DNA from: an uncultured Planctomycetota bacterium
GTDB taxonomy: Bacteria; Planctomycetota; Planctomycetia; Isosphaerales; Isosphaeraceae
Direction of reading: 5' to 3'
Length of the DNA stretch: 64,000 bases
NCBI GenBank assembly: GCA_963845755.1
Contig: CAWJTV010000034.1
Location: 608,001 to 672,000 of the forward strand
Shown: positions 24,857 through 41,700 of the stretch, piece after piece
How the letters are laid out: every line of letters starts with the position of its first letter
Numbering within the stretch: the stretch's first letter is position 1
Notes under the pieces: generated by a model
The model's database searches: none
Told to the model about the DNA's origin: nothing
What the model saw: the letters and a program-made list of their open reading frames with translations, nothing else
Program-made: the position numbers and the translations under genes

Positions 24857-26399
24857 TCAGGGTATCATCTGATAGGTCACAAAGGCGATCTTGCGGCCAT
24901 CGGGCGACCAGCACGGGACGTTGATCGTCCCCTGACCGCCGAAGAACCGACCCAGAACGTCGATCTTCTTGGTCGCCAGGGTCAGCTTGCGCAGGCTGAC
25001 ATCCTTGTTGGGCGGGTGGCCCGTCACATCCTTATCGTAGGAGAGGAACACCAGCGAGCGGCCGTCCGGCGCAAGGTGAGGGAACCAGTTGTTGAACGCG
25101 TCGGCGGTGACCGGTTCCTGCTCGCTGCCGTCGGGCTTCATGCGCCAGATCTGCATCGTGCCGGTTCGCACGGAGTTGAAGTAGATGAAGCGGCCGTCGG
25201 GCGAATACTCCGGGCCGTCGTCCAGGCCCTTGGCGGTGGTCAAGCGGGTCTCCGCACCGCCCGCGGCGGGAATCGTGTAGATATCGAACTCGCCGCCGCG
25301 CTCGCCGCAGAAAGCCAGGGTGCGGCCGTCGGGTGACCAGCCGTGCCAGTAGGAGGGGCCCGTCGGAGTGATGAGCTGCGGCGTGCCGCCGGTGATCGGG
25401 AGCGTGTAGATGAGGGACTGCCGCTTTCCCTGAGATTGGTCGCTGATGGCCAGCAAGGTGCCATCCGGAGAGATCCCGTGATCATTATTGCAACGGGTGG
25501 CGAAGCCGGTGTCGATCACCGCCGGCTCGCCGCCGGCCGCGGGGATGCGGTAGATCCGGCCGCCACTGTTGTAAATCAACGAACGGCCGTCGCTCAGCCA
25601 GTTGGGCGCCTCGATCCGGGTGGGAGTGACGTAGACCACGCGCCGATCCGTCGAGGCCATCGTCTGAGTTTCGAGAGTGCTGTAGACGACCGGCCGGCCC
25701 GATGAAGCTGCGAACGAATTGGTCAGCTCCACGTTCGAGAACACGGCCTTCTCCGTCACGTCGTCGTTGTGAGCGCAGACTCCGAGTCCGACGTAGAACG
25801 GCTCCTGGAAGGTCATCGGCACCGCGGCCCCCGAGAATGTCAGCTTGTCCCCCGAAGCCAGATACATCAGGACATATTTCCCCTTCTTCTCAAGACGCAA
25901 CCGTTTCGGTGCCGAGACGTTGGCCTGAACTTCGTGGGTGGCGGCGCCTTGGGCCTCGCGGAATTGTAGGGACGTCAGCCCGTCGCCGTGAAGCGCGATG
26001 TCAACATAAGCCGAGTCGGCATCGAGCGACTGACGAATCACCAGGCACGCCTTGCGATGCAGCTCCGTGCCGGTTCCGAGGAATGAGACGTCGGCTGTGA
26101 GTGCGAGGTCGCCCGTCGTTTTCTTCCAGACATAATGGAACGCGTCGCGGGCCGCCCACATGTTCGCGCCGCTGCCGGCCACGGTGAAGCGGCGTCAGGC
26201 CGCGTCGTACTCGACCGACCCCGGATGCCGGACGGTGCCGACATCCTGGTGCCCTTCAAAGATCCCGATAGCCTCGGCTCTCGCCCTGAGCCGGCGAGGG
26301 TGGCCGGCGTCGCGGTCGATGGGAAGAGGCGGCGTATACGTGAATCCAGCCAACGAGCAGGAAAGGTACGAATCCGAATGTGATCAGGGAGGGTCTCAT
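24857..26399 (-). CDS. TolB-like periplasmic beta-propeller (PD40 repeats) protein (frameshift near 26190)
   Basis: Signal peptide; [54 protein letters not shown]. Confidence 0.85.
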
Positions 26400-26486
26400 G
26401 GCGTTTTTCCTCGGACATCTCGAATCGGGAATATCGAATCCGAATGAGTCAACTCGCACGATGGAGCGAAGCGAAGGCCAGGGTCG

Positions 26487-27516
26487 TCACGACGGCGACC
26501 AGGTCGCCGGAGGCGGGGTGAGTCGGCGATGACCGATTCGCCTCCGACCGTTGGGCCGAGCGGACCAGCCAGCGCGACGACCAGCAGGCCGATCACAATC
26601 AACGGGATCCAGGGCACGAGCGCAACCAGCAGGAACAAGAGGGACTTGCCGAACGCGGTGAGCGCATCCAGAGAGCGGAAGAAGGTATGGCCGAGCTGGG
26701 CCTGGAGCGTCATCGGGGCAGGGGGCGTGTAGTCCTTCCACTCGGTCGCCGTGACGGTGACGGTGCTCAATCCGCGCGGTTGGCGAGGAAGCGGAGCCGG
26801 CCCTGCATCTGCTCGACCTCGCCGCGGACCCGCGTCAGCTCGCGCTCGACGCTCAGGATATCCTCGAGCTTGCCGGTCGAGTCGGCGAGGTGCTTGAGCA
26901 GGCGTTTCTCCTCCTCCTGCTTGTTGCGGATCCGGGCCTCGATGTCGTAATACTCCTCCGTCACATCCTGCGATCCGACGTGATTGGTCCGCACTTCGCC
27001 GATCTGGCTCACGGCACTCACGAACGAATCGAAGCGGTCGACCGGCACGCGGACTCGCCAGGTCGCATCGCGCTGGGTACCGGTCTGGGCGGAGATGGTC
27101 GACTCGGCAAGGAATCCACCGTTCGTCTTTGATCAGGTCGAGGATCGCTCCGCTCGGTGGCGCTGAGGCTCTTGACGAGCAGCTCGATGCGAGCGTCGTA
27201 GATGATCTTCCGGGGCATGGCGGGCGGAGGTGTGGGCGGCTTCGACTGATCCGTAGTCTGCCTCGCGGGCGTCGCCGAGGTCTCGGTAGGTTCGGCATTG
27301 ATGAAACGAACACTTCCATCCGCGTTCTGGACGTCGGAGTCGCTCTTCGCGACCGACTGTGCAAAGTTCCGCGCGTTGATGTTCGCGCCGGAGCTTCGGG
27401 GCCTCCTCGGCACAGCCGCCGGAGAATGCGGCCAGGATCATGGCCAGGCAAAGGAACACCGCCGGTTCGATCGTTGGTCGAGGATGCGGATGACTGTCAA
27501 TCCGGACGGCTTTCAT
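26487..27516 (-). CDS. DUF4349-domain lipoprotein (several frameshifts)
   Basis: Lipobox-like FSGGC; RKIIYDA, RVPVDRFDSF, SQDVTEEYYD, ILSVERELTRVRGEVEQMQGRLRFL; C-terminal TM. Confidence 0.78.
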
Positions 27517-27721
27517 GGGATGACTCCAGTGCCTCGAGAGACAGGATGAGCGGATTGAGATGTCGAGTATCAGTTCCGTGACGGAGATGGGTGCGCGGCG
27601 GCCCACTCGGTCCCAACCGGCATTATGAGGGTGTGCGCACCGATTTCCAAAGAGGGGAGATACTCGTCGCGTCGAGATGTCCGGGCCAATCGCCGTCAGC
27701 GAGTATTATGGTCCCACTGGC

Positions 27722-27942
27722 TCAATGATGCCGATGTCGCCGTGAGAAAGGGCCGGGGAGTGTCCGGAGAAGACAGGACAAGCGGAGCGGGGCGTTTCGG
27801 TGGGTCCGAGATGGCCAAGGCCCTGGTGCTGGTCGCGACGAACGTCGGGGGCTTGAGCCGGATGCGAACCCCAGCCGAGGTCGTGATCGGTGGCAACGCG
27901 GTCCCGCCCGGGCGAGCGGCCGCGCCGTATCGAGCCGGTCAG
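27722..27942 (-). pseudogene. Orphan 3' end of a paralog of the giant surface-protein gene
   Basis: LPPITTSAGVRIRL...DTPRPF aligns with LPPISGWAGVRIRL...DTPSPF at 38723-38941; both contain CGAGCCGGTCAG. Confidence 0.75.
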
Positions 27943-27947
27943 AGGCG

Positions 27948-27965
27948 AAAAAGGGGGACGGCTTT
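27948..27965. repeat. GTCCCC-family motif abutting the RAYT stop codon
   Basis: AAAAAGGGGGACGGCTTT, inverted relative to AAAGCGCTATGTCCCCGTTTTT upstream of the gene. Confidence 0.75.
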
Positions 27966-28629
27966 TACGCTTGCTCTTTGCGAGGCCGGCCTCGGGGACG
28001 CAAGCACGACTCGAGCCCCAGCCGAATCGCGGTCTTCCGGGTCCAGGCCTCTCCGCCGAACGGTCGGCCCCGTGACACCGAGTGCCGCAACCGCTGGAGG
28101 TCGCCGGCCGATGAGCGGCTCGTTGACGCGCTCCAGCCACCGATCATCGCGGACCGGCACCCGGCCCCGCCACAGCAACGGATCGCGACGCAGCCAGCCG
28201 GGGAGGCTCGACCACGTCCAGTCCTCGGCTCGTGAGACCAGTTCGGCCCGCAACGCATTCCGTTCGACGTAGCGGAGCACCGTGACCAGATGGTCGTCAC
28301 TCTGGACGGGGAACGCCTGGAACCGCCCCTGCCAGATGTGCCCCGAGGTGCCGTAATGGCGATGGTAGCGGCGCGCGTGGGCCGTGAGCAGCCACTGCAT
28401 CCAGCGACCCAGGTCGCCATCCTGCTTGGTTCTCAGCACCAAGTGGAAGTGGTTGGGCATCAGGCAATAGCCGAGGAGGTCAAACCGGGAGGCGGGCGCG
28501 AGCGTCAACCATCGCCTCGACGAAGGCGTCATAATCACCAGGCTTGTGGAAAACGGCCTCGCGGCGATTGCCCCGATTCAGGGCGTGATACCACATCCCA
28601 CCGACCGAGGCGCGAGCGGTTCGCGGCAT
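27965..28629 (-). CDS. REP-associated tyrosine transposase (RAYT, Y1 HUH, IS200/IS605 superfamily); frameshifts near 28485 and 28110
   Basis: MPRTAR...YHALNRGNRREAVF, YCLMPNHFHLVL (HUH), GHIWQGRF, RYVERNALRA, DWTWSS, RPRGRPRK. Confidence 0.92.
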
Positions 28630-28636
28630 GCCGCTC

Positions 28637-28665
28637 ACTGTACTCAACGAGGTCCCGGCTGTCAA
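28637..28665 (-). promoter_or_regulatory. Sigma-70 promoter of the RAYT gene, probably leaderless
   Basis: TTGACA-N17-TACAGT-N7-ATG on the minus strand; the -35 abuts the first repeat. Confidence 0.6.
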
Positions 28666-28845
28666 TAAAGCGCTATGTCCCCGTTTTTCCTGCGTTTTTC
28701 CCCTTGTCAATAAAGCGCTATGTCCCCGTTTTTCCCGTATGTCCCCGTTTTTCCCGTCCCCACTGAAGACCTATACCTTTGCACGGCGCACTATGTCCCC
28801 GTTTTTCCCCCTTGTCCCCGTTTTTCCCCCTGTCCCCGTTTTTCC
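28660..28845. repeat. Repeat cluster A (TATGTCCCCGTTTTTCC family)
   Basis: Two copies of TGTCAATAAAGCGCTATGTCCCCGTTTTTCC plus four shorter TGTCCCCGTTTTTCC copies. Confidence 0.9.
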
Positions 28846-29796
28846 TGCTCCCCTATGGCGTGACCGTTTCCGTTGTCGCCGGACGTACGCGAGTGAGCCG
28901 ACAGCGCCCATGCTGAGAAGGGCGAGGGTAGAGGGTTCTGGAATAGAGTTGTTGAAAGTAAGCCGGGCCACTCAAGCCGCCACCGCCGAAATCGTTGATA
29001 AACGCCCCTGTCGTGCCATTGAAACGCAGCATGACATTATTGTTAAAGTCGCTAACTAGGAGATCGCCTCCCATGAACGCTAGCCCAACGAGATTTGCTG
29101 CTGAAAAGGGGATCAGTGGCGAAGACGTTCATAAATGCGCCTGTCGTCCCGTTGAAACGCACAACATCACCACTGAAACCGCCGCTGACATAGAGGTTCC
29201 CGTCTGGCCCGAAGACCATTCCTCCGGCTCCATTCGAGCCCGCCACCAGAGGCGAAGACATTCATAAATGCGCCTGTCGTCCCATTGAAACGGAGGACAT
29301 TATTGTTGTGGAAATCGCTGACGTACAGATTGCCATCCCGTCCAAAGATTAGATCCTCGGGTTCAACCAGTCCTCCACCGGAGGCGAAAGTACCCAGAAG
29401 AGCTCCGGTCTTGCCGTCGAATCGCTCAATTCGGTCACCAACGCCGATGTAAAGATCGCCGTCCGGCCCGAAAACCAGGCCATTCAGTTCACCCGAGCCG
29501 CCGCCGCCAGTCGGAATAAATACATTCACAAATGTTCCATTCAATCCATTATAACTCAGAACACTTCTGGAATTAAAGCTTGTAACGTAAAAGTTGCCAT
29601 CGGGCCCGAAAGTCTGATCCACTGGTCCATCCAATCCCCCACCAGAGGCGAAGGTGCCGAGAAAGGCCCCCGTCGTCGTATCATAACGCAGCACGCTGTT
29701 GGTGAAATAGCTGCTGACTATCAGATCCGCCTTTGCTCGCCCCACTGCTCCCAGGAGCGAAGCCAAGGCCGCCAAGCCCCATGCGATTCGTTTCAT
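28771..29796 (-). CDS. PEP-CTERM protein 1, NHL/beta-propeller repeats (frameshifts)
   Basis: Signal peptide ...AKAD; repeated FGPDGNLYV...VLRFNGTTGAF; IPEPSTLALLSMGAVGSLAYVRRQRKR. Confidence 0.85.
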
Positions 29797-29837
29797 CGTT
29801 GTGTCTCACACTTGAGGTTAGCACCTATCGGTGGGAT

Positions 29838-30027
29838 GAGGTCTGACTCCACACCTCCGGACCGCACGCCTCCGGGAAATAACTAGAAACTAGGTCTGCC
29901 CACAAGCCTCCCAAGGTCTGCCCACAAGCCTCCCAAGCCTCCCATAACTAGAAACTAGGTCTGCCCACAAGCCTCCTTAAAGCGCTATGTCCCCGTTTTT
30001 CCAAGCTTCTCTATGTCCCCGTTTTTC
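29838..30027. repeat. Repeat cluster B
   Basis: Two copies of ATAACTAGAAACTAGGTCTGCCCACAAGCCTCC (29879, 29944) with partial copies, then two CTATGTCCCCGTTTTTC. Confidence 0.88.
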
Positions 30028-30093
30028 TTTCCAGTTTTAGTGTCGCCTGACAGACCCTGCCCCCGCTTTCTCTCTGGGTAGTATCACAAAGGG

Positions 30094-30931
30094 TCAGCCA
30101 CGAAGGCGAAGGGATCGACGGTGCCAGCCGCAGGCAAGCCCGATCACTGCTACGGTACCACACATCACCAGGGTGGAGGGTTCAGGTACGCTGCTTGCCT
30201 GTGCATATCCGAGATTGGCCGAATTAGCATTCATGATCTGATCGAAATTTAATGATATTTTTTTATCCACTTCTGAATTCGATATGCTGAAAGGAACGCT
30301 GAAATCTACCGTCATCAGGGTGGCGATCGTAGTCGACCCAGATGTTGTCACCGCGAAGTCGCTGGGTGAGAACGCCCCAGATGTCGTCAACACACCATCA
30401 ACGAGGGAGGCGCCGGCCGAAAAAAGAGTCTGCCCATTGAGAAGAAGCTGAAATGACATGGCCGACGAGGCACTACCCCGGTTGACCAGGAAGGGGTCGA
30501 TGTGGAGCTTGAAGATACCCAGGTTGAACACTTGCCTGGAAAACGAGGATACCGTCTGCGTCTGCTGAGGCAAAGACGGCGGATGTTTGTTTCGTCCCGG
30601 CATCTGTAAGGGCGTTCGTAGAAACGTCAAAGCCAAACTCAGACGTTACACTAGAAGCAAATGTGTCAGCAAATGAAAAAGTGTGCATTGGTACCGCAGT
30701 TCCTTCTGCTTGACCGGACACGCTGGCAACGACGCCGGTATCTAGATCGGCGAAGTCGGCTCCATCGGAACTCGTAGCACCTATGGCCGCGATACAAGGA
30801 TTCGGTGTAAAGACGAGACCAGGGATTTGAGGAATTAGAATTGCGCCCGCCCACGCGTCGGACCTTGAGCTGACGAGGGTCATGGATAATGCGATCAGGA
30901 ACGCGGTCGAGCGAGGCATGGAACGCGACAC
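30094..30931 (-). CDS. PEP-CTERM protein 2 (frameshift near 30540)
   Basis: AAGGAGGT RBS plus GTG start, signal peptide, SSVPEPSTLVMCGTVAVIGLACGWHRRSLRLRG; AT-richer than the host genes. Confidence 0.82.
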
Positions 30932-30963
30932 GGTCTTTACCTCCTTGAGGGGAAAAGAGGGAA

Positions 30964-31254
30964 CCAAAAAGGGGGACAGGCCAAAAAGGGGGACATAAGG
31001 CCAAAAAGGGGGACAGGCCAAAAAGGGGGACATAAGGCCAAAAAGGGGGACAGGCCAAAAAGGGGGACATAAGGCCAAAAAGGGAGACAGGCCAAAAAGG
31101 GGGACATAGCACATATTTGGGCATGCCCTACGTCCCCGTTTTCTCATGTTGGGCCAAAAAGGGGGACATAGCGCATATTTGGGCATGCCCTACGTCCCCG
31201 TTTTCTCATGTTGCGATCCGACCGGGGCAAAAACTTGAAACTAGGTCTGACCCC
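30964..31254. repeat. Repeat cluster C with inverted REP-like doublets
   Basis: Eight tandem CCAAAAAGGGGGACA(TAA)GG units alternating 17/20 bp; two GGGGACATAG-N-CTACGTCCCC hairpins; AAACTAGGTCTGACCCC. Confidence 0.92.
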
Positions 31255-31312
31255 GAGCCACCCCCGAGGGGCGATCCCCTGAGGGCGACCCAGCCCGGTC
31301 CTCACTTTCACT

Positions 31313-32149
31313 TCACTTGCCTGACCGGCGCCGGCGAGCGACGCAGCCCAGGCCTGCCAGAAAGGCTGTGCCCGCCATGACCAAGGATGCGGGCTCGGGC
31401 ACCCCGGCCACGGCGATGTTGTTCACGGCGACGGGGCTGAAGCTTCCGCTCAGTATGGAACTGAAGAGCGGCGTGGAGGATTCGAAGGCGAACCCCAATC
31501 CGATGGTCCTGCTCGACACAAGTAGGCTCGCGAACGGGGAGCTAGCGGCACTGGACCCGGCCGTGATGTTGTTGACCAGCAGGTCGAAGCGGTTGCCCAT
31601 CGAGCTCTCGTTGTATTGGACCCCTTCAACGGTCCCGGAGAAATAACTGCCCACGGTGAGCGACGCGGTGGACGCGGGGAAGAACTGGGCCACGTTAACC
31701 CCGAACGCAGTTCCCGTCCCGACCAAGTTGAAGCTCCCTGAGACCGAGACTGGCGCGCCTACGATCGGGTCCGAGGCGAAAGACGATCCCGTGACGAAGT
31801 CCCCAGTGAAGTTCAGGACGCCAGCGCTCATGCTTGCAGTCCCGTTCGAATTGAGCGACCCGCCGTTGCTCAGCTCTATGACGGGCCCGGAGGGCGGAGG
31901 CGGAGTCGGAGGCAGGACGCATTGACAGGTGGTCATCACGTCGAGGGGGCTTCCATGCTTGTCCTTGATCGTAACGTCGAATGTCGCGCACATGTCCGGA
32001 GCCATGCAGTCAACATTGGCGCAGATGCCCTGTTTGGTCGTCTTCGAGATGCCATAGAGGCAATCTCCCGATCTGACGTTGGGGCACCATGCAAGTACCA
32101 ACGCGACCACCGGGAGCGACGTGAGCACTGACGGAACGCGCCTCATCAT
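31313..32149 (-). CDS. PEP-CTERM protein 3 with a Cys-rich N-terminal module
   Basis: AGGAGGT RBS; signal peptide; six Cys followed by PPTPPPP; GVPEPASLVMAGTAFLAGLGCVARRRR. Confidence 0.88.
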   Translation of the reverse strand: MMRRVPSVLTSLPVVALVLAWCPNVRSGDCLYGISKTTKQGICANVDCMAPDMCATFDVTIKDKHGSPLDVMTTCQCVLPPTPPPPSGPVIELSNGGSLNSNGTASMSAGVLNFTGDFVTGSSFASDPIVGAPVSVSGSFNLVGTGTAFGVNVAQFFPASTASLTVGSYFSGTVEGVQYNESSMGNRFDLLVNNITAGSSAASSPFASLLVSSRTIGLGFAFESSTPLFSSILSGSFSPVAVNNIAVAGVPEPASLVMAGTAFLAGLGCVARRRRSGK

Positions 32150-32194
32150 CCACCTCCTATAGTTCGCCTCAGGGAATACCGACAACGTCGCTGC

Positions 32195-32620
32195 GGGGGT
32201 CAGACCGGGTTTCTGGGACCAAAAAGGGGACATAGCGCATATTTGAACAGGAACCAAAAAGGGGGAAAAGGACCAAAAAGGGGACATAGCGCATATTTGA
32301 ACATGCCGTGCTCTGAAGATTACCCACGAAATGTGCTACGTCCCCGTGTTCTCGCATATTTGAACATGCCGTGCTCTGAAGATTACCCACGAAATGTGCT
32401 ACGTCCCCGTGTTCTCGCCCATGCCGTGCTCTGAAGATTACCCACGAAATGTGCTACGTCCCCGTGTTCTCGCCCCCGTTTTCTCGCCCCACGAAATGTG
32501 CTACGTCCCCGTTTTCTCCCTTTCTCGCCCCACGAAATGTGCTACGTCCCCGTTTTCTCCCTTTCTCGCCCCACGAAATGTGCTACGTCCCCGTTTTCTC
32601 CCTCGTCCCCGTTTTCTCCC
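32195..32620. repeat. Repeat cluster D
   Basis: GGGGGTCAGACC; two AAAAAGGGGACATAGCGCATATTTGAAC; three longer units and three 41-bp units each containing ATGTGCTACGTCCCCGT(G/T)TTCTC. Confidence 0.92.
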
Positions 32621-32641
32621 TACCTTATCAGATACTTCGTT

Positions 32642-33637
32642 TCACCGTCGCCGGCCGAAGAATCCGGCCGTCGTAGCGAAACCAATGACGAAGAGGACGA
32701 GGCTGGAAGGTTCAGGGACAGATTCATAAGCTCCGATCACCTCGCTGCCGGAGATGCCAATCGCTATGGTAGAAGTGCTCCCGGACACGTGGAGCGTAGT
32801 GTAAGTCGTCCCGTTGTACAGGAAGCCGTAATCAGTCCCGCCGCTTTGATAGAATCCGACCACGTTGCTGCCGTAGACGCCCAACGGCCCGGTCAATGTG
32901 GCCCCAGGCACGGCGAGCGTGGTGTAGGTCCCCGCGTTGTACAGGTAGCCGTAATACTTCCCGCCGCTTTCATAGGTTCCGACCACGTTGCCGCCCGAGA
33001 CGCCCGCCGCTTCGGTCAATGTGGCCCCAGGCACGGCGAGCGTGGTGTAGGTCCCCGCGTTGTACAGGTAGCCGTAATACTTCCCGCCACTCTCATAGGT
33101 TCCGACCACGTTGCCGCCCGAGACGCCCGCCGCCCCGGTCAATGTGGCCCCAGGCACGGCGAGCTTGGTGTAGGTCCCCGCGTTGTACAGGAAGCCGTAA
33201 TCAGTCCCGCCGCTCTTATAGGTCCCGACCACGTTGCTGCCCGAGACTTGCCTTGCCGCAGTCAATGTGGCCCCAGGCACGGCGAGCGTGGTGTAGGTCC
33301 CCGCGTTGTACAGGAAGCCGTAATCAGTCCCGCCGCTCTTATAGAATCCGACCACGTTGCCGCCGTAGACGCCCGTTGCCTCGGTCATTGTGGACCCGCT
33401 CGGGGCGAGCTGGGTGAAGATCCCCGCGCTCTCCATGTAGCCGTAATTAGTCCCGCCGCTTATATAGAATCCGACCACGTTGCCGCCCGAGATGCCCGTT
33501 GGCACCGTCGCTGTGGACCCAGGCACGTCGGACAGGGTGTAGGTCCCCGCGTTGTACAGATAGGCGTGCCCCGCTTTCGCTTGCCCGTTGCCGAAAATGA
33601 GGACCGCAGCCGCCAGCAGCCATGTCAAGTGTCTCAC
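32642..33637 (-). CDS. PEP-CTERM protein 4 with 41-aa tandem repeats
   Basis: AAAGGAG RBS plus GTG; 123-bp repeats encoding G(F/Y)LYNAGTYTTLAVPGATLT...GVSGGNVVG; SVPEPSSLVLFVIG...GRRR. Confidence 0.9.
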   Translation of the reverse strand: MRHLTWLLAAAVLIFGNGQAKAGHAYLYNAGTYTLSDVPGSTATVPTGISGGNVVGFYISGGTNYGYMESAGIFTQLAPSGSTMTEATGVYGGNVVGFYKSGGTDYGFLYNAGTYTTLAVPGATLTAARQVSGSNVVGTYKSGGTDYGFLYNAGTYTKLAVPGATLTGAAGVSGGNVVGTYESGGKYYGYLYNAGTYTTLAVPGATLTEAAGVSGGNVVGTYESGGKYYGYLYNAGTYTTLAVPGATLTGPLGVYGSNVVGFYQSGGTDYGFLYNGTTYTTLHVSGSTSTIAIGISGSEVIGAYESVPEPSSLVLFVIGFATTAGFFGRRR

Positions 33638-33660
33638 TTGTCCGTCTCCTTTCGTCAATG

Positions 33661-33988
33661 GTAACCGTTCACCCCCCGTGAACCTTTTGTACAGTAAGTA
33701 CGTATTGCTGTGTATGAATCACAAGCTTCCGATCCCCGAACCACTCTGGAACACCATCCCCGCTGATGCCCAGGCCGCTCTTCTGACCGCCTGGAAGGAG
33801 ATGGAAGATCGGATTGCCGCGTTGGAAGCCCAAATGCGGGACCTCCAAGCCCGCCTACAACTCAATTTCACCAACCCGTCCAAGCCTCTTCATCCGACCC
33901 GATCGGCCTAAAATGCAAGCCGCCGTCCCCGCGAAAACGCGGGGGACAGCCCGGCCATCGCAAGGCGTTCCGAGTCTTGGTCCCGCTT
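33661..33988 (+). mobile_element. Truncated IS66-family element (one end plus the transposase 5' fragment)
   Basis: Begins GTAACCGTTCA like the intact IS66 ends; MNHKLPIPEPLWNTIP...coiled coil...GGQPGH; stops at the repeat motif. Confidence 0.75.
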
Positions 33989-33994
33989 GGGGGG

Positions 33995-34016
33995 AAAAAG
34001 GGGGACATAGCGCTTT
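33995..34016. repeat. Distal GTCCCC-family motif closing the cassette block
   Basis: AAAAAGGGGGACATAGCGCTTT is the reverse complement (21/22) of 28667-28688. Confidence 0.85.
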
Positions 34017-34521
34017 TGCCTTGTTCTTGCCACGGCCGAGTCGCTCGGGGTCACTGCAGGCCATACCGGTGTCGCAAGCCAACCCGGTGCTGCGGGCCAA
34101 GTCATGCTCGCGTACCACGCCGCAGACGCACAACAACTCCGGCCGAAGACCCCACCGTTCTTGAGCGGGCTCACCGCATGCTGCGCCGCTTCTTCCGGCG
34201 CGGATCGGACCCGGGCGATTTCACAGCAGTTGGCCGAGCCGGTCGTGATCCAAAAGACCGTTTTGATTGGCAATCGCCACCGACATCGCGGTGGTTTCTC
34301 ACCCAGCCGAACCGGGAAGCGATCGGTTCGGTGAATGAAGCACATGTTCTATTACGGGGTCGCCATCGGACCAATGGGTCGTCGATTTTTTCAGTCGGTC
34401 GAATCGAATACCCCGCCTGGATCCTGACCGCGAAGAGAACGGGTGTCAGGGACGGTACGGAACCGCTCGCATTTCCCTGCCACTACTCATAAGAATGCAG
34501 GGAGGCGGTCGTTTTATGACT

Positions 34522-35033
34522 TCAATCTTTCGCGGAGTCGCCTTTTTCTTTTTCTGACTGATCCATCCAACTGCGTAGCTTGTCCAGAATGCGCCGCTTT
34601 CGCGGCTGATCCCTGACTGGGTGAGGCAGAGCATCCCGGCGACTTCGATCTCCGTCTTTTCTTCCCAGAACAAGCCTTCGAGGAGGCGGCGTTGCGGATC
34701 GGGCAGCCGCTGAAGGCAGGTTTGCAATGACTCAGACATCTCGATGGACGACAATGCTTCGTCAAGCGCGACATCGCAATGATCGCCGCCCTCCAGGTGG
34801 CATCCGCAATGCCGGGCATAGGCCCATTCGCGCCGGTAGCGACTCAGAGACCGGGTCCAGACGCGCTGCTTGACGAAGGCGTCCAGTGAAACGCCGCGCG
34901 CCGGGTCGAAGTCTCGCTCCGCCTCCCAGGTGGCGGCGATTACCTCCGCCCTCAATTCCTCTGACCAGTCCCTCGGTGACCAGTTCGGCGGCACAGGCCA
35001 CGTGTGAATCGATCTTAGGAATCGGTGAGCCAT
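34522..35033 (-). CDS. Small sigma-70-family RNA polymerase sigma factor (frameshift near 34603)
   Basis: WEAERDFDPARGVSLDAF (region 2); LQRLPDPQRRLL...TEIEVAGML..TQSGISR/RKRRILDKLR (region 4). Confidence 0.75.
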
Positions 35034-35549
35034 CTCCGTCTCCCGATGCTCGTCCACCGTCGGACTGGACCGCTACCGGCGCAACAGACCTCGCATCATG
35101 CCACTCATCGGCCACAGCTTCCGTATGAACCGAGCACGCATCCGTCCGGAGTCGATACAACTCGCGAGGCAAGAGAAGATATTGTTGGGCCCTTTCACGG
35201 CCCGGCGGTCCGGCTCAGAAATAAGCGCCGGCGTCTGTTCGTTAGACCGGGCGACGCTGATCCGTCATGGATTCTTCCCGTCGATGGACGAAGAACCGGC
35301 CGCCCAGACAGGGCGGGAGCGTGACATCAACCGTTCTGACTTGATGTTAAGGGCCAATCCTTGGCCCTGGTCAAGGTCGGGGTATGACGTTGTTCCGGCG
35401 GCGCGAAGCATACCCTTCCTCGAGGCTACGGCTCCCCGCCCCGGGTCAACGCATTCCTACGACGCAGTTCTCCCACGTTGAGTGGAACCGGGATCAAGAT
35501 ACGATGAAAAGCCGGGCCGATCTTCGTCCAGAGGCCGGCTTGATTTGCA

Positions 35550-37090
35550 GCAACCGTTCAGTCCCCAACTCGGCCCAGGAATTGCGGTGCGGGTGAGGCC
35601 GGACCGATGTGCCACGATCGCTCCAACCAGATAATCCAACACCGGGCGGTTCTTCAATCGCAAGGTTTGGACCACCGTCAGCATCCGCTCCACGAAGCGG
35701 CACCCCGCGGCGCTGTGGCAGCCGAAGGCGTTCTTCCGCCACAACACGCCCAGGCGAAGGACTCGTTCGGCATGGTTGTTCGTGGGCTCGACCCCCTCAA
35801 GGGCCGCAAACAGCCACAAGGCGGGATACAAGGCCAACACGTTGGCACAAAAGGTCGCGGCCTTGGAATCCGCGCAGGAGCAACCCTGCTCCAAGGTGCT
35901 CTGGAGTTCGCGCACCATCCGCTCGACACGGGCTTGCAGGCCCGGCCGGTCGAGTTCGCCGCGGCGGAACGCCCACCAGTCGGCAAACAAGCATTCCACG
36001 ACCTCCAGGCCCACCCGTCCGATTGCGTCAGCGGGCCCTCCTCGATCGATCAGCTTCTGAAAGTCGCGCTTGAGGTGAGCCCAACAGATCTGCCGCAATT
36101 CCAGGGGCAGCTTGCTATAAGCCGACCAGCGGTCGCTACAGACGACGCCGGTGATCGCCTCACCCAAGAGGGCCTGAAGGCCCGCAAAACTCCGCCGGAG
36201 GTGGATCACGAAAAAGGCCGCTGTCGCCGTCGCCGCCGTCCACAGCCAGCGCTTCTGGCCTGCTTCACTCCAGCCGGTCTCGTCGGTGTTCTTCACCGCC
36301 GCGTCCCGGACTTCCTTCTGGACCTCTTGATATGCACCGGCCAAGGCGGCACTGGTCTCGGCTTCCAAGGCGATCACGGTCCCCAACGCGATCGGCACCT
36401 CGAAGACGGTCTCGACGATCTCTTCGACGGCTCGACGGCTCAGGTGATGACGTCCGGTGAGGTACGACATGACCGCAGCCAACCGCGGCGCGATGACATG
36501 GGCACGGATCTCGGCGGGGATCTCACCCCGATTGAGATGGCCACAGCCGGGGCAGGTGCGCACGTGTGCTTGGTGCTCGGTGATGATGGCCATCAGCGGG
36601 GGCAACTCGGCGACTTGGTGCCAGGTCGGCTCAGGATCGCCCGGTGCGGGTTGCTCGGGCAAGGGGGCTTGGCATTGGGTGCAGATCGTCGGCACGTAGG
36701 GGACGATCTTCTGAACCCGGTCCGGCGGGAGCCGATGGCGATGCGAGCCGGGATGTCCCGGTTGCCCGCCCGGTTTACGTCCACTGGCGGTCTTGACGAC
36801 CGACTTGGGGGCCCCCGGTGGATCGGCCGAAGGGGGTGAGGAGGAGTTGGAGGAGTGGCGGTTGAGTTGGCAGCGGAGTTCGTGGAGTTCGGCTTGCAAC
36901 TGGGCGATCTGTTGCTGGGCGAGTTCCAGCGCGGCCCAGAGCTTTCCGCATTCCGGACAGGCCGTCCCAGGGGTGGCAGGGAGATCGCTCATACAGTCAT
37001 AACGATTCGGCTGGCGGAAACGATCGCATGAGTTTTGGCGAAGACTCGGCTCCTCGCATCATTCATGCCGTAGGGGGACTGAACGGTTAC
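35550..37090 (-). mobile_element. IS66-family insertion sequence (single-ORF type), 1541 bp
   Basis: IRs GCAACCGTTCAGTCCCC / GGGGACTGAACGGTTAC; 8-bp target duplication GATTTGCA (35542-35549 / 37091-37098). Confidence 0.93.
35558..36992 (-). CDS. IS66-family transposase
   Basis: NSSSPPSADP, GGQPGHPG, TDETGW, SDRWSAY, QICWAHLKRDF, EPTNNHAERVLR. Confidence 0.93.
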
Positions 37091-37502
37091 GATTTGCAAT
37101 TGCCTCGAGCGTTGCGTCGGCGATGCATCAAGCCAAATCTGGACGAGCCTCGCTTCGATCAGACTGGCCGGAGTCATGTTACACGGAGTTATCTCGGTTG
37201 CAAGAATTTTTTGAAGTTTGTGTGAACTTGAAATCCTCAACTCAGTAAGGATTTCAACTCATGCTGGAGTCGGTCTGGGTCGGCAGGAACACGAGAAAGA
37301 ATCTCCGATCGGATGGACGAATTGAGGCGTGACCCTAAACTGTGGTTACCGATTGGGTTCAGCGACCAGCGGTGCATCAAGGCGTCATGGGACTGTTCAG
37401 AAGCAGACTCAACTCGTTTGAGTCATCGGAATTTGAGAGACTCCTCGCTGGACACCACCACGATTTGCCCCGTGGGGGCCAAACAAATCAGCCCGGGGCA
37501 AC

Positions 37503-38491
37503 CAACTTATTCCATTTAGGTCGCAAGTCTTTATGTCAGAACAATTTCCCTCCCAGGATCGTATCTATGTATGGAAGTAGAGACAATCCTCAGAGGAGGG
37601 CAACTATGGAACTGGAACTCTGGCCGCAACTGTATCACCTCGTCATGGCGGTGGGTGGCTCGATCCGCCAGGTCAACGTCTCCTACCAGCCCCACATCTT
37701 GGTCCTGGTCCACCTGTGGGCCGCCCTTCACGATCGACCGGCCTGCTGGGCTTGTGATCCTCGGCACTGGAAGACCACGACGCTCCAGCCGGGTCGTTTG
37801 CCCGCGCCCTCGACTCTGAGCCGACGACTCCGGAGCTTGGCCGTGGGCGTCCTCATGCGGACTTTGGCGACGCGGCTCCGCGATGTAGTCCCCCCGCGGT
37901 TGGTACAGATCCTCGACGGTAAGCCCTTGCCGGTTGGTGGTGCCAGTCACGATCCGGATGCCCGCAATGGCCACGGCGCCGGCAAGATCGCCAAGGGCTA
38001 CAAATTGCACGCCGTCTGGAGCAACCGTCCGATGCCCGAGGTGTGTTCGATCACACCGCTGAATGTCGCCGAGACCAAGGCCGCCGAGCAGTTGCTGCCG
38101 GAATTGGCCGACTGCGGCGGCGGTGGCTACGTGCTGGGCGATGGCGAGTACGACGCCAACCCGGTCTTCGACGCGGCGGGCGCCGCGGGCTACCAGTTGG
38201 TAGCCCCGCGCGAGGACCCCAAGGCCGGACTGGGACACCGCCGCCAAAGCCCGTACCGCCTCCGCTGCATCGAGCTGTTGCAGGGAGATTTCGGGAAGAG
38301 CCTCTACGCGATGCGCGGCGCGATCGAGCGATCCTTCGGCCAGGCGACCTCCTTCGGTGGCGGCCTGGGTCCGCTGCCGGCCTGGGTGCGCCGGTCGTGG
38401 CGGGTGTGGCGTTGGGTCTGGGCCAAACTGCTGATCAATGCTGTGCGGATCGTGAATCGACAAGGACTTACGTTCCAAATGGAATAAGTTG
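37503..38491 (+). mobile_element. Small insertion sequence, 989 bp (IS5/IS982-like DDE)
   Basis: Perfect 15-bp IRs CAACTTATTCCATTT (37503-37517 / 38477-38491); 3-bp target duplication AAC. Confidence 0.9.
37606..38487 (+). CDS. DDE transposase (DDE_Tnp_1-like)
   Basis: PSTLSRR, ILDGKPLPV, GYKLHAV, LGDGEYD, RGAIERSFG; AGGAGG RBS. Confidence 0.88.
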   Translation: MELELWPQLYHLVMAVGGSIRQVNVSYQPHILVLVHLWAALHDRPACWACDPRHWKTTTLQPGRLPAPSTLSRRLRSLAVGVLMRTLATRLRDVVPPRLVQILDGKPLPVGGASHDPDARNGHGAGKIAKGYKLHAVWSNRPMPEVCSITPLNVAETKAAEQLLPELADCGGGGYVLGDGEYDANPVFDAAGAAGYQLVAPREDPKAGLGHRRQSPYRLRCIELLQGDFGKSLYAMRGAIERSFGQATSFGGGLGPLPAWVRRSWRVWRWVWAKLLINAVRIVNRQGLTFQME

Positions 38492-38722
38492 AACGCCCCG
38501 GGAACCGAGGGACCCTCCCTGAATAAGCCCTGAATGGGCGACACAAGGAGGGTCCCCTGACCGGCCGTGTGTCGCCCTTTCAGGGCTTCGCGTGGGGTGG
38601 GCGACTGAGTCTCGGGGCGTTGCCCCGGGCTGGTATGTTTCGGCCCCCCTCCGGGGCAACGATCCGCCCCGAGCGCCGCCCGAGTCCGGTGGTGTTTAGC
38701 GAGGAGTCTCGAATTTGAGGTC

Positions 38723-41700
38723 TCAGCAATGCCATCGCCGCCGGGAGAATGGCGAGGGAGTGTCGGCGGGGGGCTGGACAATCCGGGCGGAGGGATCGGC
38801 CGTATCCCTGATCGCGGAAGACACGACCCTGGGTCTGGCGAACGCCCGAGAATTGAGCCGTATGCGGACTCCGGCCCATCCGGAGATCGGTGGCAACGCC
38901 GTCCGGCCCGAGCGGCGGCCGTGGCGTACCGAGCCGGTCAGCGTGCTTTTCTCAGGAATCGTCCCGATCAGCTCCAGTTGCTGGATGCTGCCAGCCGGAG
39001 CCTGGAACAGCTCCATCAGCCCGCCGCGGGCGAGCTTGAGCGTCACGACGTTGCCACCTCCGTCTGTGTAGGCGATTCGCGTCCCCGCGCCGAAGGTCGC
39101 GACGAACGGCGTACCGATCATTCCATCCGAGCCGGCGAGGAGGTCGCCGTTCGCGTCGGTCAGGCCGTTATTCAGGAGCGCGTTCGCCGCGCCGTCGATC
39201 ACGATTCGGTCGACGTGGTTCATCGGCAGCGGGGAGGCGGGGATCAGCGTGACGGTCAGGTTCGCGGCGATTGTAGACCGCGGAGCGAATCGGTGCGGAG
39301 CCAGCGGCGACACTGCCGAAGGCGCCTCCGCGACCGGCCGCGATAACGAAGGCCCCGTAGTTGGCCACGTTCTGCGCCTGGGACGAATTGAGTGGCGCAT
39401 TGAAGGAGAAGGTGACCGCTGTGATCCCGGCTCGACTGGTCGAGAGCTGCTCGGATGTGACGATCAACGGCTTGTCGATCGTTACGGTCTCGATTCTCGG
39501 GTTTCCCAGGAGGGCGCCGCCGGTGGGAGTGCTCAGGCTCAGCGCGACCGTCGCATCGTACGGATTCCCGCTGTTGCTGGAGATTGGTAGGCTGAACGAT
39601 TCTTGCAAGACGCCGGGCGGGAAGGCCAAGGTGCCCGCGACGGGCGTAAAGTCAACGCCCGGGATCGCACTGGCGGCCGTTGACGCATAGCTCACTCCGA
39701 CCGTTCCGCTCGATCCGCCCGATCGAACGACCGTGATCAACGCGTTACCCGCGGACGGTAGGAGGGTGACCGCAGCAGAGCCGAAGCTCAGCGTCCCGGC
39801 CGAGGCCGTGAGGCTCAGTGTCGCCACAGCCGGAGTACCTAGCGAACCGCCGGTGGGATCGCTCAGTGCGAGATTGACGGTCCATTCGCCGATATGGGTC
39901 AAGCTTCCCGCGAGCGGCACGGAGAAGCTCGCGGTCGTCTGGCCTGGACTGAAGTACAAGGTGCCGATCGCGGCCTTGTACTCGACGCCCGGCACGGCCG
40001 TGCCGCCGCCGGTCGCATAAGCGACCGACGAGCTGCCTGCGGGAGAATTCCGGGTCACGGTGATGAGGGCCGATCCCTCCGACTCGTCGTCCGAATAGGC
40101 TGACGCACTAAACTGGACTTCAATGGCCCGGGTGTCCACGATCGTCAGCACAGCCGTGCTGGGAGTGCCCAGGATCGCCCCGCCGGTCGGGCCGCTCAGC
40201 GTCAGGTCTACCGTCAGGCCGTCGGCTGGCGGAGAATTCGCATCGATCGGGATCGTGAAAGTCTGGACGCTCTGGTTGGGAGAGAATACCAAATTCCCGT
40301 GCGTTGCTGTGTAGTTGACACCTGGCACGGCCGTACCCCCGCCCGTGGCATACGCGACGGAGACCGTCGCGCCGATGTTGCCGGTGCGGGTCACGGAGAT
40401 TGTGGCCGAACTCCTCGACTCGTCAACCGAGACCGCCGCGGAGGCGAACTGGACGACGACCGGCGAGGTGAGCGTATCGTTCGAGAACGCAGACGTGTCG
40501 CCGTTGGACAGGTTCGTGGCGGTGGCCGAGACCGCCAGCCCGCCTGAGAGGGCGCCGGAGATGGTCAGGTTGATGGTCGCATTTCCGTTCGAATCGGTCG
40601 TCAAGACCGTCGAACCGATCAGCGTCTGCCCCTGACCGTGACCGGAAGGGTCGGCCGTGGCATTGCTGAAGAACTGGATCAGGAACGACGCGTCGGGCGC
40701 GGAGGCGAAGCTCGCTTGAATCAGCGTCGTCGTGACCGAGGGGATGCTCGCCGTGAGGACAGGGGCCGTTTGAGCATCGTTGCCTTGCCCACTCAAGATG
40801 ATTCCGAGTTGAGCATTGGAGAAGATGGCGTTGGAGAGCGCCGAGTTCCCCGTGCCCGCGGTGATGCCGATCCCCGAGCCGCCGTTGTAGGCGAGGGTGT
40901 TCGCCGCGCCGGCGTTCGTGCCGCCGATCGTGTTGTTCGAGGCGTTGCCGTCGATCGTCACGCCGTCCCCGGCGTTTCCGATCAGGTCCGAACCACCGGC
41001 GTTCGTGCCGATGAGGTTACCCCACAGGATATTGCCGATGCTGTCCGAGCCGCTGAGATGCACACCGTCGCCATTGCCGGCGATGACGTTCCCTGCCCCG
41101 GTGGCGGTCCCGCCGATGAGGTTGGCGGGGGCATTCAGGATCTCGACGCCGTCGGTGGCGTTGCCCATCGGTGCCGATCCGTCCGATGTCGTGCCGATCC
41201 GGTTGGCCGCGACCAGGTTGCCCGTCGCGGCCGAGCCTTCGAGCACGATCCCCGCGCCATTGTTCGCGACGACGTTCCCCGCGCCCGCAGCGGTGCCGCC
41301 GACGCTGTTGTCGCCGGCGCCGTAGAGGAAGACGCCGTCGAACTTGTTGGCGTTGTCGTCGTTCCCCGAGACCGTGCCGATGAAGTTGCCTTCAACGACG
41401 TTCGAGCTGGGCTCCGCGTTGGGGATCGCCGTCGTGGGGGAGTCGGCGGCGTCGAGCTGGGTGCCAGAGATCGTCACGCCGTTCCGGCCGTTGTCGGCGA
41501 TCGTATTCTGGGCGGCGGACGTGTTCCCGCCCACCAGGTTCCCTGAGGACGCGAGGAACACGCCGTCCCGGTTGGGAATCGGCTCGACCCGGCCGTTGCG
41601 GTTGTTGCAGCCGATCAGGTTTCCCTGGACGATGTTGCCGGTGGCGGCGGTGGTGCCCGTGGCGGTGGGTGTGGGGATGACGACGCCGGGGATCGTGCCG

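Follow-up and report, generated by a model that had tools for sequence, protein, structure and literature searches.

The locus described here lies in a stretch of 64,000 nt (the window) from the 14.3-Mb genome of an uncultured planctomycete of the family Isosphaeraceae (G000, whose contigs carry C numbers), and it raises the question of what a transposase is doing beside a row of surface-protein genes. A Y1 HUH transposase gene stands next to four co-oriented genes whose products carry a PEP-CTERM sorting signal, and a GTCCCC motif is clustered at every junction between them. An earlier note on this DNA, made from the sequence alone, had read the arrangement as an integron analog in which the linked transposase captures and shuffles single-gene cassettes. 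We find that the enzyme and the motif belong to a known type, and that what is new is the stacking of apparently promoterless surface genes, bounded by terminal inverted repeats (TIRs), behind a putative sigma-linked promoter in at least two genera. The account that we place first, and to which we give an even chance of being correct, is that the locus is a PEP-CTERM expression site repeatedly remodeled by transposases of this type (TIRYTs) acting in trans, with single genes loaded or trimmed.

The array and its terminal inverted repeats

The window contains 38 matches to GTCCCCNTTTT at up to one mismatch, where 3.43 ± 1.85 would be expected; none of 100 shuffles gave as many, and 33 of the 38 fell within 27949-34006. 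Exact copies across the genome numbered 150 in 81 clusters, the one at the array being the largest with 26 copies. The clustering seen in the earlier note is thus borne out. The motif, which that note did not see clustered elsewhere in the 64 kb, is not confined to this locus; TIR dimers occur across the genome. The motif is the TIR of a repetitive extragenic palindromic (REP)-type Y1 transposase of subclass 2.1 (TIRYT/TIRtron), because paired TIRs (at least 11 of 13 bases) flank 41 of the 97 TIRYT loci fetched with the intact paralogue at C47:224483-225142 as the query, and because a GGGGWSAS consensus is given in PMC3733652. The core GGGGACAT departs from the published GGGG[AT][CG]A[CG]-like consensus at its last base. 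A second family, family B (GGTCTGACCCC), flanks gene 3 most closely on both sides and makes up most of the cluster between genes 1 and 2; it is the TIR of another, unlinked TIRYT subgroup, having been seen at a TIRYT on C27 and behind a C-terminal remnant in L313. The junction repeats are accounted for as TIRs of families A and B. Hairpins formed by TIR dimers are weak in the window (z of -1.5 and -2.0) and score -4.8 and -5.7 elsewhere in the genome. An Rfam scan of 27400-35500, which is no test for attC sites, returned no match. The most enriched CCCC word, TAAGTGACCCC, was dropped as a CRISPR-like repeat; a CRISPR-like array whose repeat contains it, in about 53 copies, runs from about position 260600 of C19 onward.

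All four PEP-CTERM genes lie on the minus strand as previously described, with NHL repeats in gene 1 and six 123-nt repeats in gene 4. The Pfam PEP-CTERM model scored genes 1 and 4 above its cutoff and genes 2 and 3 just below, and three exosortase matches (TIGR02602) were present in the genome. Gene 1 (28771-29796; GC 0.54) encodes a signal peptide, the NHL repeats, and a PEP-CTERM segment at 28944, and is split over three frames; the PEP-CTERM frame runs into a TIR cluster without a prior stop. It has no inward motif on its 5' side, as had been noticed, and keeps about 45 nt of its own upstream DNA. The junction at 29838-30030 (plus strand) has six cores, four of family B (GGTCTG(A)CCC-like) and two of family A, and each of them faces the 3' end of gene 2 (30094-30919; GC 0.54), whose passenger is unassigned and which has one frame break. 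The splitting of gene 2 over two frames, like that of gene 1, had been missed. The ribosome-binding site of gene 2 starts a few bases past a TIR tail, and the cluster that follows (30950-31260) consists of 37-nt tandem family-A stutters, two 62-nt TIR dimers, and then a family-B TIR facing gene 3. Gene 3 (31313-32149), with a Cys-containing N terminus, is bracketed by family-B TIRs; it was not found in 120 genomes of the family, and one close protein in a large protein collection (91% identity over 54% of the length) was not placed on DNA. The next junction (32191-32625) has a family-B TIR facing gene 3 and then a family-A dimer with 63- and 41-nt stutters facing gene 4 (32642-33637), which encodes six 41-aa repeats and has relatives in 25 of the 120 genomes, at up to 60% identity over the matched stretches.

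About 24 nt upstream of gene 4 lies a 324-bp remnant of an IS66 left end (DUF6444; 33661-33984, plus strand), which ends at the tail of the next TIR, an intact family-A copy pointing into the array (33989-34016, minus strand). Of the inward pairs earlier claimed for genes 2 to 4, the inner pair of gene 3 is of family B, and the IS66 remnant parts gene 4 from its right-hand motif. The inverted repeat at 28667/33995 that had been taken to enclose the whole block exists (24 nt, 96%) but is neither unique nor special; 28712-28736 and 29979-30002 pair equally well with 33992-34016, and all are TIR copies. A TIR pointing inward at the stop was found for 48 of the 9,538 crudely called genes of this genome (about 0.5%), and four TIR-faced genes in a row are therefore no chance occurrence.

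The position of the breakpoints was read from neighboring TIR copies. Among 192 such pairs, 68 keep a tail of 8 to 12 nt before the next junction (60 have at least 40 nt, probably including a CRISPR repeat), which places the working end about 10 nt past the core. Junctions had been expected directly 3' of GTCCCC; they lie instead about 8 to 12 nt beyond it.

The sigma-linked site and its counterparts

Upstream of the array and co-oriented with it is a gene for an extracytoplasmic function (ECF)-like sigma-70 factor (34446-35057, minus strand), whose 3' end is probably frameshifted, with the native stop likely near 34520. A bipartite promoter-like motif, GTCATAAAA-N12-TGCATT (34490-34521, minus strand), follows the stop of the sigma family, and a conserved noncoding leader (34231-34452, minus strand), without an Rfam match, is common to the orthologous site in G001, a genome of the same genus, to the C19 paralogue, and to other sigma loci. 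The sigma family is present in 30 of 121 genomes. Of 40 sigma loci fetched, 37 had enough downstream DNA, and 14 of these 37 have a co-oriented PEP-CTERM gene within 3.5 kb. The sigma-to-PEP-CTERM module is native and usually free of TIRs. A TGCAT-type word follows the sigma stop at 19 of 42 loci, compared to 11% of random stretches, usually 12 nt behind GTTGTGAA or GTCATAAAA. With a matrix trained without the window, on a set that includes close relatives, 34521-34490 was the top site of the region, and no comparable site was found before genes 1 to 4. From its position and shape, the motif is a candidate promoter of the sigma factor. A wider role for it across a PEP-CTERM regulon was not borne out (6 of 78 genes, where random sites gave 3%, and half of those six belong to the two TIR loci), and a literature search on an ECF-like sigma module with a promoter-like motif after its own stop returned nothing.

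Counterparts of the site carry other genes. The orthologous interval in G001 has none of the four genes and no TIRYT; between inward family-B clusters, with a family-A TIR nearby, it has a different, nonhomologous PEP-CTERM gene that is oriented like the array and lies downstream of the shared leader, and the sigma gene itself was not found there. In the window genome, a PEP-CTERM gene at C19:52269-53047, behind a sigma paralogue, is bracketed by unpaired family-B ends that lie 22 nt from the stop and about 47 nt from the start. In G024, which belongs to another genus and was reached via a relative of gene 4, the sigma family is followed by three co-oriented PEP-CTERM-type genes; each junction is a TIR cluster, all three open reading frames (ORFs) run into a TIR tail, and two lack a basic tail. 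Of the 67 CTGACCCCNTT matches in G024, 15 fall in the 3 kb of this array, and none of its 12 Y1 matches lies within 500 kb of it (the genome is 58% complete). In G097, whose sigma end is 86% identical, a native PEP-CTERM gene comes next and TIRs are absent; G024 diverges from G097 right after TGCATTATC, i.e., after the -10-like element. The incoming piece, 113 nt long and TIR ended, recurs before the third gene of G024; each copy follows a C, and both junctions fit the C|T joining reported for TnpA-REP. Finally, behind a TIR-bracketed PEP-CTERM gene in G083 stands the 3' stub of a second such gene.

At these five sigma-type sites (window, G001, C19, G024, and G083), which span this genus and two others, one or more PEP-CTERM genes are fenced by inward TIR ends, mostly near the ribosome-binding site and the last codons, and the passengers differ. 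Co-orientation with tight 5' ends was seen for genes 2 and 3 and also in C19, G024, G083, and G265. Both of the multigene PEP-CTERM arrays found, in the window and in G024, sit at a sigma site; this enrichment was seeded by the window itself and is suggestive only. Three findings support the reading of the earlier note: boundaries are tight and look recombination-like, a different TIR-bracketed gene occupies the G001 site, and a second array, of three genes, exists in G024. The same four genes in the same order without motifs, which would have counted against it, were looked for in the 120 family genomes and not found.

The remodeling that we favor would proceed as follows. A TIRYT acting in trans on single-stranded DNA would nick about 10 nt beyond the TIR core, and the nicked end would be joined to other DNA. 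Repeated rounds of nicking and joining would yield stutters and duplicated TIR ends, and the same rounds could shorten neighbors such as the IS66 remnant and the PEP tails. Single promoterless genes would be brought in behind the sigma-linked promoter, and products would survive since they are expressed from upstream. A TIR tail read in frame would encode Lys, Gly, and Arg and could replace the basic tail of a PEP-CTERM protein. More tentatively, and with a chance well below even, TIRYTs may be single-strand gene-loading recombinases that, in trans, join promoterless genes between their TIR ends and place them behind the sigma-linked promoter; the sigma gene and its promoter would then serve as the attI/Pc platform does in an integron, giving rise to variable arrays of surface proteins in planctomycetes.

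Several results weigh against this account. The 120 family genomes, a set with one genome per species in which a test for shared cassettes is weak, yielded no cassette that occurs at more than one site or in more than one genome, so that capture and movement stand as proposals. Nine single PEP-CTERM genes abutted by TIRs (L047, G085, G088, G100, G112, G114, G265, G281, and G405) have no sigma homologue in the DNA fetched, some contigs being short. Thirteen of the 14 sigma loci with a PEP-CTERM gene lack a TIR bracket, G083 being the only bracketed one, and passengers at TIR-free sigma sites are already mostly unrelated, which implies PEP-CTERM turnover without visible TIRs. In this genome, 8 of 10 tandem PEP-CTERM clusters have no TIR. 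The promoter is known as a sequence motif only, and long TIR hairpins with T-runs behind them could block read-through. The literature searched held no data on TIRYT activity. When the C|T rule was tested more widely, 36 of 197 stutter junctions agreed with it where 21 were expected; this weak result is confounded by rows that are not independent, by TIRs rich in CT, and by a CRISPR repeat that was probably included, and it was not taken as evidence.

Competing explanations and the adjacent transposase

A strong rival, which we rate as possible though well short of even, is a passive hot spot: nonautonomous TIR elements would have settled between the genes of a native tandem PEP-CTERM cluster, as REPs do, and deletions next to the TIRs would have shortened the spacers up to the point where selection halted them; the genes would never have moved as cassettes. 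Any two TIR dimers astride a gene yield an inward pair automatically, and the genome has 57 close dimers; TIR edges in this genome lie mostly outside genes, TIR-free tandem PEP-CTERM clusters are common, and the IS66 remnant, cut at a TIR tail, shows that deletion has occurred. Insertion followed by trimming accounts equally well for the tight ends and the stutters. It is less at ease with the departure of G024 from the native G097 state at the promoter and the repetition of the incoming piece before the third gene, with the nonhomologous gene at the G001 site, with the headless stub behind the bracketed gene of G083, and with the half-sites without partners around the C19 gene.

The proposal of the earlier note, a dedicated, PEP-CTERM-specific cassette array with the linked RAYT as its resident recombinase, is improbable. 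Most array motifs do agree with the TIR of the adjacent transposase, five other loci (L047, L192, L194, L291, and L294) have a PEP-CTERM gene immediately upstream of a TIRYT gene or of what is left of its 3' end, and L080 has a TIR-punctuated array behind a TIRYT. However, among 62 TIRYT loci found by the transposase alone, and thus unbiased, each with at least 900 nt upstream, a PEP-CTERM gene was within 1.5 kb at 2, compared with 1.8 expected from the PEP-CTERM density of this genome. Neither the G024 array nor the G001 site has a linked TIRYT, the window array mixes two TIR specificities, and the right TIR of the transposase is itself degenerate. Relatives of the transposase at 78 to 83% DNA identity lie in unrelated neighborhoods. 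Of the 41 TIRtron loci, 14 have cognate TIRs at a distance of more than 300 nt, against 0 to 2 in controls, but only 4 of the 41 have at least two further cognate sites within 10 kb.

Nor did the counts support PEP-CTERM genes as preferred cargo, whether in this genome or in many. Among 92 candidate motifs in this genome (81 Pfam PEP-CTERM matches), an inward TIR near the 3' end was found only for the four window genes and the C19 gene. The junction pattern gave 15 matches in 14 of 401 genomes, this one included (control, 2), and 7 of the 13 outside it were true PEP-CTERM genes, so that with the pattern used, 400 genomes hold 7 true TIR-abutted cases. The family-B pattern gave one match in 121 genomes, and PEP-CTERM genes were absent from all 10 other family-B TIR loci. 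A metagenome scan with the family-A TIR recovered 18 mostly short loci, three of them near a PEP-CTERM gene and none with an array. In L080:10001-13200, from a Phycisphaerales metagenome-assembled genome (MAG), and in L117, a TIRYT is followed by single genes parted by cognate TIR dimers, with a repeated TIRYT 3' fragment; these are the most integron-like RAYT-adjacent arrays among the loci fetched, and their cargo is not PEP-CTERM.

The adjacent transposase is best explained as one mobile TIRtron at the site rather than a fixed integrase. Its gene (27965-28629, minus strand) lies in three frames, in pieces 72 to 85% identical to the intact C47 paralogue, which carries a related TIR; it is a Y1_Tnp gene and stands, as had been described, between outward motifs, at 27949-27959 and 28677. 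The breaks near 28482 and 28112 had been overlooked. Together with those of genes 1 and 2, they are probably assembly errors because 1-bp indels are frequent, 5 of 11 orthologous ORFs of G001 also being split in the window; the conserved flanking genes at 26396-27500 and the flanks are likewise broken across several frames, and the indel rate is high. Subclass 2.1 proteins are about 240 aa long and have a C-terminal extension; the roughly 220 aa here carry NHFH, WQ, YVERNA, and WSS motifs, with the P of the Y motif replaced by A. The Pfam model Y1_Tnp scored above its cutoff and NF047646 below, and the match to the fold family of Escherichia coli TnpA-REP (PDB 4er8) had an E value of 2.4e-4. 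The enzyme has the subclass 2.1 signature (Table 1 of PMC6006769), TIR flanks, and a TIR family elsewhere in the genome, and its closest named relatives are Isosphaeraceae records. GTAG-footed short palindromic REPs are absent beside the gene, where the flanking repeats are TIRs, and it is therefore not a classical REPtron (groups 2/3). The left TIR with its stuttered copies (28662-28850, plus strand; six family-A cores) is intact and agrees with the TIRs of the close relative L039, and just inward of it a sigma-70-like match, TTGACA-17-TACAGT (28637-28665, minus strand), faces the transposase as a putative promoter by consensus. The degenerate right TIR, of family A (27943-27965, minus strand), lacks part of the core-proximal ATAGC stretch that L039 keeps.

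It is very unlikely that the four genes moved together as a composite transposon, whether the 28667/33995 repeat or a pair of TIRtrons formed its ends. The outer repeats are near perfect, and the DNA past 34016, which may be a decayed TIRYT 3' end on weak evidence, resembles one slightly (in a comparison with the window's own gene, 5 of 300 shuffles reached its score). Equally good repeat copies lie inside the block, however, and the block is present in 0 of 120 family genomes. A TIRYT C-terminus profile missed the supposed remnant and one of three DNA comparisons was nonsignificant, the alignment being borderline; a second TIRYT remnant was therefore not retained. The assembly has frequent 1-bp indels, and no public run spans the locus (the best contained 0.10 of the locus words, in short pieces only). 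An assembly artifact is nevertheless a hardly credible source of the stuttered clusters given like stutters in many independent records, including a cultured Geomonas isolate (L085), MAG contigs such as L039 and L109, and G024 and G083, although individual TIR copy numbers may be wrong.

Other elements were seen at TIRs and around the locus. The 5' end of a group II intron (GTGCG...) sits within a family-A TIR in the window (28759-28793) and in L006, L148, L157, and L160; the window remnant is about 35 nt, and the L006 copy (C22:4032-4084) adjoins a reverse transcriptase fragment (TIGR04416). Some group II introns target attC sites, and these TIR-borne ends are reminiscent of that. An IS110-family element (NF033542, below the cutoff) starts right after ATGTCCCC and appears to target the TIR, as in L001 (C47, about 225150) and L008 (C12, about 184450 and 186480). 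A family-B TIR is abutted by the end of an element in L128 (the G001 site), L259 (G083), L245 (G089), L322, and C41:17600-19050; this element appears to encode an integrase and an IS91-type transposase, and a noncoding derivative of about 320 nt is common to G001 and G083. L005 (C18:2389-3351) has a 741-bp tandem duplication whose unit is a TIR-dimer cluster with a small orphan gene, and further TIR-bracketed, low-GC orphans lie at C36:198776-199069 and C45:68313-70163. A direct repeat of about 105 nt (79% identical; 27823-27942 and about 38839-38942) flanks the whole variable region of the window, and G001 has one copy. IS66 and DDE transposase genes (35457-36992 and 37342-38487) separate the sigma gene from the conserved gene that comes next, and the ends of the DDE element (about 37430-37500 and 38490-38715) match a multicopy element in G001.

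Comparison with known systems

Integrons have IntI beside the array, one attC site per cassette with a GTTRRRY-type core, and co-oriented, mostly promoterless genes behind one promoter. The present array shares the layout with them and with clusters of attC sites lacking integron-integrases (CALIN): co-oriented, for the most part apparently promoterless single genes with tight ends and one putative promoter, arrays without a linked recombinase, and hairpin sites that appear to draw group II introns and IS110-type elements. It differs in having sites on both sides of a gene, mixed site families, and imprecise, stuttered junctions. No IntI tyrosine recombinase was seen at the locus, where the scan, short of every window ORF, gave Y1, sigma, IS66, and DDE for the flanking genes; no attI or attC site was identified, and the recurrence of one cassette in different positions or arrays was seen in none of the 120 family genomes, which cover one genome per species. 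The array thus resembles an integron in layout and fails integron membership. The folding of attC sites is treated in PMC8266576.

TIRYTs and TIRtrons were described by Di Nocera, De Gregorio, and Rocco in 2013 (PMC3733652); their TIRs have a GGGGWSAS core and can be found away from the gene in dimers and clusters. Quentin et al. (2018, PMC6006769) equated TnpA-Y1 subclass 2.1 with TIRYTs, leaving the link for confirmation, and found no REP-like sequences for that subclass; RAYT group 1 of Bertels et al. (2017, PMC5581495) comprises the same enzymes. The terms TIRYT and TIRtron occurred in only two works of the literature searched. The locus agrees in having a Y1 HUH gene framed by long TIRs whose core is GGGG(A/T)CA, in TIRs as singles, dimers, and clusters, in several divergent genes per genome, and in the NH[YF]H, WQ, Y-x-E-x-N, and SS signatures. 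Unlike the TIRYTs described in the available sections of these three papers, it has TIR-bounded passengers, gene arrays, stutter tails, and a putative promoter platform. REPtrons, BIMEs, and REPINs (E. coli TnpA-REP) share the fold family and the tandem repeat arrays, and their chemistry fits the proposal: TnpA-REP nicks single-stranded DNA 5' or 3' of the hairpin at C|T and joins the 3'-C to T (PMC8266576). The window repeats differ in having no GTAG foot and in being inverted repeats of about 25 nt with long loops in place of the short REP hairpins, and no cargo genes are reported in the REPtron sections available of PMC8266576. As in the PEP-CTERM/exosortase system, all four passengers have the sorting signal and the genome has exosortase matches. 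Haft et al. (2006, PMC1569441) described mostly single-gene operons with upstream regions of more than 200 nt and sigma-54 sites in Proteobacteria; here, by contrast, little more than the ribosome-binding site is left in front of the genes, and the sigma gene upstream is ECF-like. No paper on TIR-bounded gene arrays or RAYT-driven gene capture was found in the literature searched, which included few subscription papers and no supplements.

The locus, together with G024 and G097, bears on the role of RAYT-type transposases in their hosts and offers concrete substrates for its study: the TIRs are defined, cutting is predicted in a zone about 10 nt past the core, and one expression site is available as a before-and-after pair. 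If gene loading is false, TIRs would still create gene-trimming hot spots that mimic cassette arrays. If it is true, the cell surface of these planctomycetes would be diversified without a tyrosine recombinase, by an HUH-based counterpart of the integron, and the largest RAYT group would have a host function.

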